Below the pieces are notes generated by a model. That model was not told where the DNA came from and did not search any database. It saw only the letters and a list, made by a program, of their open reading frames with translations. Below are positions 24,899 to 53,777 of a stretch of 64,000 bases of DNA, piece by piece. Made by a program: the position numbers and the translations under genes. Origin of the DNA: Octopus vulgaris (taxonomy: Eukaryota); NCBI GenBank assembly GCA_951406725.2, contig OX597816.1, forward strand, positions 24,304,001 to 24,368,000, written 5' to 3'. Position 1 is the first letter of the stretch. Each line of letters opens with the position of its first letter.

Positions 24899-24995
24899 TT
24901 TTAGACGATGCATCGTTTCTGTGTTTTTAATGATAAACCAGCTTAATTAAATTAAATTAAGCTAATCTACCATAGGTCACACTTCATCAGTAAAA
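24899..24995 (-). ncRNA. Type I hammerhead ribozyme motif (canonical core) in a short Penelope-like repeat (~24770-25165)
   Basis: Minus strand: stem I UUUUA, core CUGAUGA, stem II (GUGU..ACAC plus a 19-bp extension with four G-U pairs), GAAA, palindromic stem III ACGAUGCAUCGU, C17, then UAAAA. Confidence 0.75.
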
Positions 24996-25593
24996 AACCT
25001 GGGAGAGACAAATATACACGAAGCGTCTGTATCAATGCCTCCGGAATATCTCTCTTAAAATTTTCAAGACCAACGTAGTCTTTGACTATTTTCTCTTTTC
25101 CACTAGACCGCTGGTAGCGATAAATTTCTATTGAATTTTTTGCTACCCTAAGTTGATTAATTTATATGCATATATATATATACATATCTATATATATATA
25201 TCTATAAATATATATATATAAGTTTGGAAATGTTGACTACCTTGTGTTATGTTTCGATGGCGCTTGGTCGAAGATGCAAAGGGTAGATTTCTAGCATTTT
25301 CAAATTTATAATTCTCGAAATATTATGTCGATGAAGGAAATGAATTTTTTATAATTCTAATCCAGAAACGCGTCCATAATAAATCGTAGACTGTTTGATT
25401 TCATTATGTTTTCTTCTTTTGCCTATGTGAGTTACAAATATTGTTGTTTCTAAATTTTCGGTATGTAGTTAAGCAACTTTTTGCTAAACCTTTAATTATA
25501 TATACATATATATATATATATATATATATATATATATATATATATATATATATATATATATATATATATATATATATATATATATATATATAT

Positions 25594-26019
25594 AAATATT
25601 AGTTATCGCCATACTAATATGGCATTCTTATCAAAATAAGAATAAAGCTGACCGCTTATTAGCTCCATGAGGCCATCGCCTTAAGTTAGCTATTTGATAC
25701 ACAAACTGTATCCATATAACCTTTGAACAAGGGAGGTCAGTCGCTCCACACTACTTGGCCGGCAGCTACAGAGATTGTCAGAAGCGACACCTACTGGTTT
25801 GGCTACGCTGCATTGAGAAGGGGCAATACCCCGAAACGCGTCTGTAGCTGCCGGCCAAGTAGTGTGGAGCGACTGACCTCCCTTGTTCAAAGGTTATATG
25901 GATACAGTTTGTGTATCAAATAGCTAACTTAAGGCGATGGCCTCATGGAGCTAATAAGCGGTCAGCTTTATTCTTATTTTGATAAGAATGCCATATTAGT
26001 ATGGCGATAACTAATATTT
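25594..26019. repeat. Perfect 179-bp inverted repeat with 68-bp spacer (Penelope-like inverted pLTR structure) inserted in (TA)n
   Basis: 25594-25772 is the exact reverse complement of 25841-26019, checked base by base. Confidence 0.95.
25807..25848 (+). ncRNA. Minimal type I hammerhead ribozyme motif, U3-A8 core variant
   Basis: Reads GCUGCA | UUGAGAA | GGGG-CAAUA-CCCC | GAAA | CGCG | UC | UGUAGC. C3-G8 is replaced by the compensatory U3-A8, and helix III is the palindrome ACGCGU. Confidence 0.72.
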
Positions 26020-29000
26020 TCCGGGAACGCTGCCGTTGTTCTCTTTTAGAGAGACTTAGTAATTTTAATATTTCTATTATATATATATATATATATATAT
26101 ATATATATATATATATATATATATATATATATACATATATATGTATGTGTGTATACACAAATCCGTGCACACACGTATATATGCATACATATACACACGT
26201 TTATATTCACACATACGTACACACGATACGCATCGGTACGGATATGAATAAATATATTCAAAGATAAACACCTAAGGGTATGTACCTAGATAGACATACA
26301 CATGCATACATACACTTACAGGTATGCTTATACGTATGTACTTACATGTAAGTATACACGCACATTATACAAATATTTATACGTTTATGTAAATATAGAT
26401 ATTTACATAAGCCTATGTAAATATCTATATAAACGCCTCAATGTTTGTATTAATTTTATAGATATACACAGATATACATTTACATATATATGCAGAAACG
26501 AGTGGCTGTGTGGTAAGTAACTTGCTTACCAACCACATGATTCTAGGTTCAGTCCCACTGCGTGGAACCTTGGGCAAGTGTTTTCTACTATAGCCTCGGG
26601 CCGACCAAAGCCTTGTGAGTGGATCTGGTAGACGAAAACTGAAAGAAGCCCGTCGTACATATGTATATATATATGTGTATGTGTGTGTGTGTGTGTATGT
26701 TTGTGTGTCTGTGTTTGTCCCCCCAACATTGCTTGACAACTGATGCTGGGGTGTTTACGTCCCCGTAACTTAGCGATTTGACCGATAGAATAAGTACTAG
26801 GCTTACAAAGAATAAGTCCTGGGGTCGATTTGCTCAACTAAAGGTAGTGCTCCAGCATGGCCACAGTCAAACACACAAACACATACATACACACACATAC
26901 ATAATTATATATATATATATATATATATATATATATATATATATATATATATATATATATATATACATACATACATATATGCATTCATATATATATACAT
27001 ATATATCCAAATGTATACATATATACATACATATATACATATAAATACATACATACATATATATATATATATATATATATATATATATATATATATATAT
27101 ATGTATGTATGTATGTATGTATGTATGTTTGTATGTATGTATGTAAGTATGCATGCATGTATGTATGTATGTATGTATGTATGTATAGATAGTTAGATAG
27201 ATAGATAGATAGATAGATAGATAGATAGATAGATAGATAGATGGATGGATGGATGGATGGATGGATGGATGGATGGATGGATGGATGGATGGATGGATGG
27301 ATGGATAGATAGATAGATAGATAGATAGATAGATAGATAGATAGATAGATAGATAGATAGATAGATAGATAGATGGATAGATAGATGAATGGATAGTTGC
27401 GAAGTTTGAAAAACCGAAGTCATTTTACAGTTTGTATAAGCAAGGCTTCGATGTAACTGTCGAACTTTTCGATGTGAAAATAAAATATGCTGCTACACAG
27501 AAAGGTATTGAGAGTTATAACGTTTGGCTGTTCTTATATATATATAACTAAGCTTTAAAATAAATATTGATATATGGACACGTGTCCTTGAGTGTGTATG
27601 CGGGTGTGGTCGTGCATGTATGTGTGTCTGTGCGTATGGGTGTGTGTATGTAAGTATGTATCTACACACGTATTCATACACCCCCACACAGATATATATA
27701 TATATATATATATGTGTGTGTGTGTGTGTGTGTGTGTGTGTGTGTGTGTGTGTGTGTGTGTGTGTGTGAGTGTTTGTATATATTTATATTCACATATATA
27801 CAAATGCATATATATATATATATAATATATATATATATATATTTAAATGTATGTATATATAGATATACACACATATATTTATAAATATATATATCTATAC
27901 GTACATGTATGTATATAAATATATATATATATAAATATAATATATATAAATGTAATATATATAAATGTAATATATATAAATATATATACATATATAAGTA
28001 GATATAATATATAGAAATACATATATATATATATATATATATACATATATACATATATATATACATACATACATACATACATACATACATACATACATAC
28101 ATACATACATACATACACACAAACACATACATTCAGACGCACACATATGGAGTGTGAATTAGTTAGAGAAAAGGTGGAGATAGATACATCAAAAGAAAAA
28201 TGAAATATCAGAATTTAGGAAAATCAATGGTATTCATCACCATACATCTATGTGTGCATGCGCATATGTGGTGTAAATATATATATATATATATATATAT
28301 ATATATATATATAAATATATATATATACACATACACGTCTCTACAAATATTGGTATTTAGTTGATGGTATTGATGGTGTATTTATGCAGTTCTGTAAAGT
28401 ATCAATTCGCGTGCGCTTGAACTCGTTTATTCACAGATAGACACATTGACGATACTTACAACACACACAAATGCCCTCCCGACACACATTTTCTCTCTCT
28501 CTCTCTCTCTCTCTCTCTCTCTCTGCCTGTCTCTGTCTCTGTCTCTCTTTCTCACCGCTACCCACACACATACACTATAGACAGAACCATCCGCATGTAC
28601 ACACATAAAATATCATTAAAATCTTTCTCATACAACTTAGAAGACAGACAAATAATAGGTTAGGTATGTAAAATAAATATTCTGCATAAGAGATTTTATA
28701 CACGAGACTTACCAAACGTAGAACCGTTATTATTATACCTTCCTCATTACCTTTATTGTAATTATAACATATGCAACGAGACTAAATGGTTGTTGTTGGT
28801 GGTGGTGTTGTTGTATAGCCTCAATCAACCCTCTTTGACCATACTTATTATCAAAGATATCTCGTCATATTATTTTCCCAGACATATCTAATACTGCATT
28901 ATCCAAAGTGTCCTTCCCACTACCATCCTATATATATATATATATATATATATATATATATATATATATATATATATATATTATATATATATATTTATAT

Positions 29001-29073
29001 ATATATATTCATATCTATCATTCGCCATGATAGATCGCTAGCCACTACACATTCTTTATTTTCTCTCCTTGTT

Positions 29074-52900: not shown

Positions 52901-53199
52901 TCTTCTCAAAGACCTTATTATTTGATTTGGATATATTTATGTAAACTAATTTTCATCTTCTCATTGTAAAACATTTTATTACCTGAATGTTTTATGTAAA
53001 CTATTTTTTGACTCATCACAGAGGATACGCAAAGCCTCAAACATTTTCTTGTCATATATATATATATATATATATATATATATATATATATATATATATA
53101 TATATATATATATATATATATATATATATATATATATGCCATGTTGGACCATTAGCCCCTACACGCAATTTTTTTCTCTCCTTGTTTCTTTTCTGTGTA

Positions 53200-53237
53200 T
53201 CTTTCTGTCGAAGAGCGTAGGCTCGAAACGTAAAAGA
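53200..53237 (+). ncRNA. Minimal hammerhead-like motif, copy 3 (repeat ~53137-53335 between (TA)n tracts)
   Basis: Reads UCUUU CUGUCGAA GAGC-GUAG-GCUC GAAA CG UA AAAGA. Confidence 0.5.
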
Positions 53238-53508
53238 CTTGTTTTATTTCTATTCCTGAGCGTCATACTAATACATTGTTTGTTTGTACTCACCTGTCTT
53301 CATCTTTTGTTTATTTTCGTAAACCTTCCCGTTATATATATATATATATATATATATATATATATATATATATATATATATATATACAGAACCTACATCA
53401 TAGTAATTCAATTCATAGTGAAAAATATTATCTATAATAAAATATAAATTTAAATATATTATTAATATTGTACAAAAAATTACTATACTTTTATATATTG
53501 TGAAATTT

Positions 53509-53777
53509 GAAAGAAAGAGACCTCAATATTATGTAAACAGAGGAAATTTATCTGTAAAATAATATGTGACAATTATACAAAAGCCAAGATAAAACTCTGA
53601 GTTTCGGATGCCGAGGTGGAAATCTACACCTTCTCCAGATAACCGAAGAGATGGTGTTGTGGATTTCTACGTCGGCATCCGAAACTCAGAGTTTTATCTT
53701 GGCTTTTGTATAATTGTCACATATTATTTTACAGATAAATTTCCTCTGTTTACATAATATTGAGGTCTCTTTCTTTC
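53509..53777. repeat. Inverted repeat, 106-bp perfect arms (imperfectly extendable to ~120 bp), Penelope-like inverted pLTR
   Basis: 53509-53614 is the exact reverse complement of 53672-53777. Confidence 0.93.
53637..53699 (+). ncRNA. Type I hammerhead-like motif (U4C core change) spanning the spacer and right arm of the inverted repeat
   Basis: Reads AGAUAA | CCGAAGA | GAUG...CAUC(C) | GAAA | CUC-A-GAG | UU | UUAUCU. Confidence 0.6.

Follow-up and report, generated by a model that had tools for sequence, protein, structure and literature searches.

Hammerhead-like motifs in an intron of a C1q-like gene

We analyzed a stretch of 64 kb from Octopus vulgaris (assembly GCA_951406725.2, contig OX597816.1, positions 24,304,001 to 24,368,000 of the forward strand; hereafter the window, whose first letter is position 1), in which seven hammerhead ribozyme-like motifs reside within an intron of a C1q-like gene. 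Three of the motifs, belonging to one family (family C), share a U instead of A at core position 6 (A6U). The gene was delineated by mapping C1q-like protein 3 of Octopus sinensis, which matched three exons on the plus strand with 100% identity within the exons. The first coding exon (11799..12087) encodes a start resembling a signal peptide and a short collagen repeat; exon 2 (53889..54110) and exon 3 (57387..57593) encode the first and the second half of the C1q domain, respectively. The mapping leaves a single first intron of 41.8 kb (12088..53888, plus strand) that contains all seven motifs, as a first-pass annotation made from the sequence alone had claimed. For exon 2 there are two possible AG acceptors in the same frame (53889 and 53901), separated by 12 nt; use of the later one would end the intron at 53900. 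C1q-like protein 3 takes the first acceptor, and related proteins align as if taking the second. The host gene would be a passive landing site for the elements.

The coordinates and letters of the motifs, numbered sites 1 to 7 along the window, were confirmed as the first-pass annotation gave them. Positions follow the standard hammerhead numbering, and cleavage the standard NUH rule. A descriptor for type I hammerheads tolerating at most one core change, written after the motifs had been seen, gave seven matches in the window, namely six of the seven sites and one extra match, whereas block-wise dinucleotide shuffles (n=30) gave on average 0.17 matches and at most one. With a strict subset of the descriptor there were four matches in the window and none in the shuffles. 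Because the descriptor postdates the sight of the motifs, this contrast is somewhat flattered. The extra match (18567-18637, minus strand) is weak, AT-rich and non-palindromic, and was treated as a chance match. Site 5 (47281-47320, minus strand) was missed because its position 3 is an A and its helix I is mismatched. The claimed type I topology was thus recovered at the other six sites, where a helix I of 5-8 bp closes the layout, and it does not extend to site 5.

All seven sites have a G-C pair at G10.1-C11.1, and C, U or A at position 17, which fits NUH. The palindrome of helix III is exact at six sites and interrupted at site 7. An unpaired base follows A9 at sites 1, 3, 4, 5 and 6; it is not needed at site 2, and site 7 shows a Hydra-type layout. 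A core of the form CUGANGA or U3-A8 was found at sites 1 and 2 only, while U6 occurs at three sites, and A3 and C4 at one site each. A check against Rfam did not bear the motifs out: scans of two sub-regions spanning four of the sites disclosed microsatellite and hairpin matches without a hammerhead, and no hammerhead was among the 150 of 429 matches listed for the whole window.

By self-BLAST within the window, only the sites at 29074, 32228 and 53200 are related to each other (75-84% identity), and nothing similar to the other four was found except their own fold-back arms. Five unrelated families in repeats had been proposed; five unrelated sequences are indeed present, and a repeat is evident for one of them, family C. 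Direct tandem units were not detected at any of the seven sites by self-BLAST, nor was the partial tandem arrangement of a pseudo-long terminal repeat. For six motifs, no more than 234 bp separate the centre from a (TA)5+ run, compared with 40% of intron positions lying within 260 bp (binomial ~0.02). The reported (TA)n association therefore holds for these six, modestly against the 40% background, and fails for site 5, whose nearest (TA)n is 1 kb away and which abuts (TAA)n/(TAG)n.

Single copies represent families A, B, D and E in the window, to which the analysis of these four was confined. The family A element, ~390 bp between degenerate (TA)n runs (24776..25161, minus strand; ends set by eye), harbors site 1 (24896..24998, minus strand), a type I hammerhead with an intact CUGAUGA core and C17. 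It exhibits an extra A after A9 and before GAAA, a 19-bp hairpin that lengthens helix II, and a 12-nt palindrome as helix III; the fold z-scores were -5.4 for the motif and -4.3 for the element. For a 64-aa frame upstream of site 1, one protein search was empty and a fuller one returned two repeat proteins, which were rejected as the score was a sum of weak matches.

Site 2 of family B (25807..25848, plus strand) is a minimal type I hammerhead with a U3-A8 core, a 6-nt palindrome and C17. Its forward arm with a one-sided tail of ~57 bp, followed by (TA)n, occupies 25841..26076 (plus strand), and a perfect inverted 179-bp copy of 25841-26019 lies at 25594..25772 (minus strand). The inner end of the inverted arm (25841) precedes the cleavage site predicted at 25842/25843 by 2 nt. 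The arm may end as if copied from the 3' cleavage product, which we regard as a lead only; such proximity is expected by chance in ~2% for one element and 4% for two, and it is absent at site 7.

Site 5 of family D (47276..47326, minus strand) is a degenerate minimal hammerhead. Site 7 of family E (53637..53699, plus strand) is a type I hammerhead-like motif with C4, one additional base ahead of GAAA and a helix III of 3 bp that encloses a single A. Its inverted arm (53509..53614, minus strand), a perfect 106-bp copy of 53672-53777, extends to 22 nt upstream of the predicted cleavage site. The changes C3A at site 5 and U4C at site 7 likely reflect decay after insertion.

Family C and its A6U core

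Family C comprises sites 3, 4 and 6, all on the sense strand; a fourth copy was not found in the window. Copy 1 (29024..29195, plus strand; motif 29074-29111 with U6, G7 and U17) has (TA)n on its 5' side, copy 2 (32154..32363, plus strand; motif 32228-32265 with U6, U7 and U17) has its 3' end at (TA)n, and copy 3 (53138..53332, plus strand; motif 53200-53237) covers 195 bp between two (TA)n runs, with U6 at 53208, C7 at 53209 and A17 at 53232. Among the three copies, 35 of the 38 motif columns are invariant versus 84 of 135 flank columns (p = 3e-4 for these related copies). Each copy opens with a common 6-base word holding an ATG, with an in-frame stop at codon 5. From this shared start (29024, 32154, 53138), the motif is reached after 50, 74 and 62 nt, respectively, i.e., in steps of 12.

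To follow the family beyond the window, public contigs were aligned to copy 3 at a likeness of at least 80%, with differences shown from 3%. The sample consisted of four of the 24 listed runs, from four studies with three organism labels, and provided 17,520, 12,509, 5,313 and 1,049 contigs (36,391 in all). Position 6 revealed no variant at 3% or more in any of the four runs. At the adjacent N7 all four bases occur, with shares of depth of 22-27% for A, 8-13% for G and 31-46% for U, and a change at position 6 would therefore have shown as easily. At N17, U replaces A in 13-32%, and G never reaches 3%. Other differences are mainly of the CpG type and affect G12 (2-4%), the palindrome (4-10%) and a loop G (5-10%). 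Contig depth was highest on the motif; on both sides dissimilar flanks diverge, and 1-nt indels are frequent in both. U6 is thus fixed in a very abundant family. Since it is family-wide and the contigs stem from insertions of any position and strand, U6 was present in the source copies and does not result from repair by the host.

The size of the family was estimated in two ways. Summed motif depth divided by ordinary single-contig depth (assumed as 40, 45 and 8) gave ~2 x 10^5 for three runs, a value that loses weight in our reading as the underlying depth figure is, by its own tool, no copy number. Scaling of three copies per 64 kb to 2.8 Gb gave ~1.3 x 10^5, from one window. As a crude estimate, the family has roughly 10^5 copies. 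The family C pattern had no matches in viral contigs and none in prokaryote genomes; eleven metagenome matches lay in GC-rich loci (0.54-0.67) lacking the remaining motif, and were dismissed as chance. Among the runs listed, none with family C contigs is on record as RNA, and we make no claim on expression.

Some further features of the contigs are recorded here. Within 53216-53230, the loop G changes in 5-10% and its paired C neighbour in less than 3%, an uneven CpG decay, and decay of the palindrome CpG is even on both bases. A pyrimidine tract (53170-53212) ends in YAG in ~25% of the copies, namely those with A7, and resembles a sense splice acceptor, which is speculative.

One explanation of these data is that A6U hammerheads retain full function in their native setting, e.g., as a dimer, together with the protein of a Penelope-like element (PLE) or with another metal such as Mn2+, and that cleavage is part of replication. 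The two most variable motif positions, N7 and N17, are positions that a hammerhead leaves free (by chance, they would be the top two of 38 with a probability of 1/703, or 0.03 if loop bases are free as well), and the lack of G at N17 above 3% agrees with the cleavage rule. Moreover, a natural A6C hammerhead stays active in Mn2+ (PMC7151607), and PLE hammerheads can be protein-assisted (PMC11167929). On the other hand, the A6C ribozyme cleaves below 0.1 per minute (PMC3088659), and CUGA mutants performed poorly in the saturation mutagenesis of another hammerhead (PMC9901934). Furthermore, in each of the three window copies the sequence is retained on either side of the cleavage site, and tandem units were not observed, which argues for copying of uncut RNA. 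The predicted best dimer fold is a double hammerhead for sites 1 and 2 but not for family C, whose three copies would adopt the double-hammerhead fold at a cost of 8-13 kcal/mol above the best dimer fold. In the predicted best fold of each of these copies, U4-G5-U6 pairs with the ACG of the palindrome. We therefore consider full function of A6U unlikely.

Origin and spread of the elements

According to the first-pass annotation, host selection removed or disabled ribozymes on the sense strand of the intron. None of the five sense motifs has a CUGANGA core, and two of them are locked in hairpins, both locks being predicted by folding. That the altered motifs are sense and the intact one antisense is true for the sense side only, as the second antisense motif (C3A), which had been omitted, is altered too. 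Standard cores amounted to 0/5 sense versus 1/2 antisense by copy (Fisher p = 0.29) and to 0/3 versus 1/2 by family (p = 0.40); a significant strand bias was thus not detected in the window intron. Rather than being depleted, the sense strand holds five of the seven motifs. Furthermore, U6 is family-wide, and U3-A8 is a natural covariation of PLEs (PMC4209133) that is reported to be active in vitro (PMC3088659). Fold-back copies are general in PLE insertion, which also speaks against host selection. There is also little for the host to select against, because lone minimal hammerheads are not cut as monomers in the one case tested, in which multimers cut weakly (PMC4209133). The U6 core is a trait of family C and not a host defence, and we give selection by the host next to no credence.

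The motif-bearing elements are likely 3' fragments of PLEs. This assignment, in line with the PLE origin proposed in the first-pass annotation, is inferred from anatomy because no open reading frame (ORF) could be linked. It is supported by the minimal hammerheads, the (TA)n target, and the inverted 5'-truncated copy combined with a one-sided tail at sites 2 and 7 of the seven. Inverted 5'-truncated copies and one-sided tails are general hallmarks of PLE insertion, and insertion at (TA)n is described for Hydra, Naiad and some other PLE clades (PMC8557442). PLE terminal repeats carry minimal type I hammerheads with a U-rich lead, with many families per genome and mostly single motifs, and opposite-strand hammerhead pairs 100-700 bp apart occur (PMC4209133). 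In O. vulgaris, a 2026 annotation lists 190 Penelope-like families making up 6.83% of the genome, of which 31 were recently active (PMC13282606); hammerheads did not come up in a search of its supplement. With a genome of ~7% PLE, it is expected that a single long intron rich in repeats harbors several families of PLE hammerheads. The suggestion that the families are probably uncatalogued is weakened by this annotation and by Hydra-1_Obim, a PLE of O. bimaculoides that prefers (TA)n and whose hammerhead lies ~100 nt from the 3' end (Craig et al. 2021, PMC8557442). Four short motifs of the window gave no match in the supplement of the latter study, a weak test as its sequence lines are wrapped and long runs are cut.

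The alternative that the elements are retrozymes without long terminal repeats (non-LTR retrozymes) moving via small circular RNAs finds some resonance in the unit of ~200 bp and the shared 5' start of the three family C copies, and in site 1, whose core is intact and whose element folds well (z -4.3). Metazoan retrozymes, however, possess canonical hammerheads in tandem repeats (PMC7229834), and tandem units were found at none of the seven sites. A head-to-tail joint of the family C unit was likewise not among the listed contig differences; these were limited to skips and a pair of back-steps of 20 nt in the pyrimidine tract. The retrozyme reading of the first-pass annotation is not supported, and we judge it very improbable.

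We favor the reading, which we consider reasonably probable, that the motifs are likely the 3' ends of five PLE families, and that the A6U copies represent one very abundant family with a fixed U6 that likely spread while cutting weakly or not at all. A PLE reverse transcriptase (RT)/GIY-YIG protein encoded elsewhere in the genome would nick (TA)n and start copying ~95 nt downstream of the family C motif. Copying would then pass the uncut motif up to the shared 5' point 50-74 nt upstream, resulting in a unit of ~170-210 bp. U6 would lower catalysis, and its predicted pairing with the ACG palindrome would hinder the dimer fold. The motif would be constrained in source copies, likely through binding or refolding by the PLE protein, or because residual protein-assisted cleavage matters. 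A precedent is the anole PLE reconstituted in vitro, in which catalytically dead hammerhead mutants insert normally, the main template is uncut RNA, the ribozyme requires the PLE protein for cleavage, and AT-rich DNA is nicked by this protein (PMC11167929). Taken together, the effects of position-6 changes, the predicted folds and this precedent suggest a short element for which a PLE protein acts in trans, copying through a hammerhead that is attenuated and left uncut but still recognized or refolded by the protein. More tentatively, and with somewhat less than even confidence, we propose that octopus genomes contain ~10^5 short Penelope-dependent elements whose fixed CUGU core is selected not as a free ribozyme but as a fold that is recognized or activated by the PLE protein.

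Several observations weigh against the favored reading. A PLE RT or GIY-YIG domain was not found by Pfam in 186 frames of at least 55 aa, drawn from 289 filtered frames of at least 45 aa in 12000-57600; this bears out the earlier remark that no RT ORF lies nearby, and is expected for 3' fragments. Two contig variants break pairs at the open end of helix I (53200 U>C, 13-23%; 53236 G>U, 2-6%), and helix II showed no variant at 3% or more. Many flank positions also lack a variant at 3%; invariance alone is therefore weak, and the case rests on the placement of the large variants. The alignment reference was a single copy, which distant relatives with a canonical core may escape. The motif folds of family C have weak z-scores (-0.6 to -2.2), and the predicted gain by U6 pairing is only 0.2-2.4 kcal/mol. 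Covariation, named at the outset as a check, was not seen: none of nine helix pairs in the three copies has a compensatory, two-sided change, and there is one G-U wobble. N7 is also the third codon position in the short frame of all three copies.

The last two points would equally suit a motif that is kept for a coding frame or as protein-binding DNA or RNA, with its hammerhead likeness due to descent only. On this view, N7 falls at the third position of a valine codon (GUN), and all three copies, with 5' parts differing by 12 and 24 nt, retain the frame. However, this frame stops at codon 5 in each copy, the base at N17 creates or removes a stop codon, both flanks often show 1-nt indels, and all other features fit the PLE hammerhead consensus. 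We regard this explanation as improbable.

If the more tentative reading, of a selected fold addressed by the PLE protein, is true, few known motifs of ribozyme descent would be as abundant per megabase as that of family C, which would offer a natural test of the purpose of PLE hammerheads. These are widely conserved, cut poorly and are dispensable for insertion in vitro. Massive spread with a fixed A6 change, and with variation only where a hammerhead may vary, separates keeping the fold from keeping the chemistry, a question that can be tested with a 40-nt RNA. The fixed CUGU core would be invisible to standard searches. The family also suggests that a large cephalopod class is overlooked by descriptors that insist on CUGA.

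Other repeats were noted in the window. The C-terminal piece of a long interspersed nuclear element (LINE) of the apurinic endonuclease (APE)-RT type (39590-39862, plus strand) is 40-43% identical to two database proteins; it was rejected as a partner of the motifs, being of the APE type and 7 kb from the nearest motif. Mariner-like transposase fragments reside at 18903-19477, between 37-bp inverted repeats, at 34809-35111 and at 48818-49327, where Pfam HTH_48 scored above the cut-off (48818-49015). Two repeats have two copies each, 29711-29790/29999-30079, close together, and 17408-17609/47613-47808.

Comparison with known systems

Earlier work has already described PLE hammerheads and their variety, the U3-A8 core, fold-backs and, in octopus, the targeting of (TA)n. 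The window motifs resemble the minimal hammerheads of Cervera and de la Pena 2014 (PMC4209133) in their type I topology with short helix I, U-rich lead, unpaired base after A9, G10.1-C11.1, palindromic minimal helix III, NUH, U3-A8 and opposite-strand partial copies nearby, as well as in the occurrence of many unrelated families per genome, mostly as single copies. In contrast, U6 of family C is absent from the 56 representatives presented there, whose descriptor required CUGA or U3-A8, and the crude 10^5 copies of family C compare with thousands per genome.

With Hydra-clade PLEs (PMC8557442) the elements share (TA)n targeting in octopus, a hammerhead at ~100 nt from the 3' end and inverted 5'-truncated copies. 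Site 7 comes closest to this clade, having by eye the extra base before GAAA and the 3-bp helix III around one base; its helix III letters are those of a Hydra-clade element, and its core layout is that of Hydra-1_Obim. Unlike Hydra-1_Obim, site 7 has C4 and a sequence that differs by eye, sites 2-6 have a minimal palindrome, and the window contains no ORF that could show the RT and endonuclease motifs specific to the clade (RWK, DKT, no CCHH). Metazoan non-LTR retrozymes (PMC7229834) are likewise short non-coding units with type I hammerheads in animal genomes. Their canonical hammerheads, tandem repeats and circular RNA set them apart from the single, minimal, fold-back elements described here.

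For the A6U change itself, no natural example was found in the literature searched (including the available parts of PMC7229834, PMC6765202, PMC6155905 and PMC13725137), whose coverage is incomplete, and a prior description is possible. The nearest relative in this respect is the hammerhead of phage Bcep176 (PMC3088659; PMC7151607), which has a natural change at A6 in an otherwise normal core. That A6C ribozyme is a lone phage example, slow in Mg2+ and active in Mn2+, whereas family C, known from sequence, carries a U that is fixed in a high-copy retroelement of an animal.

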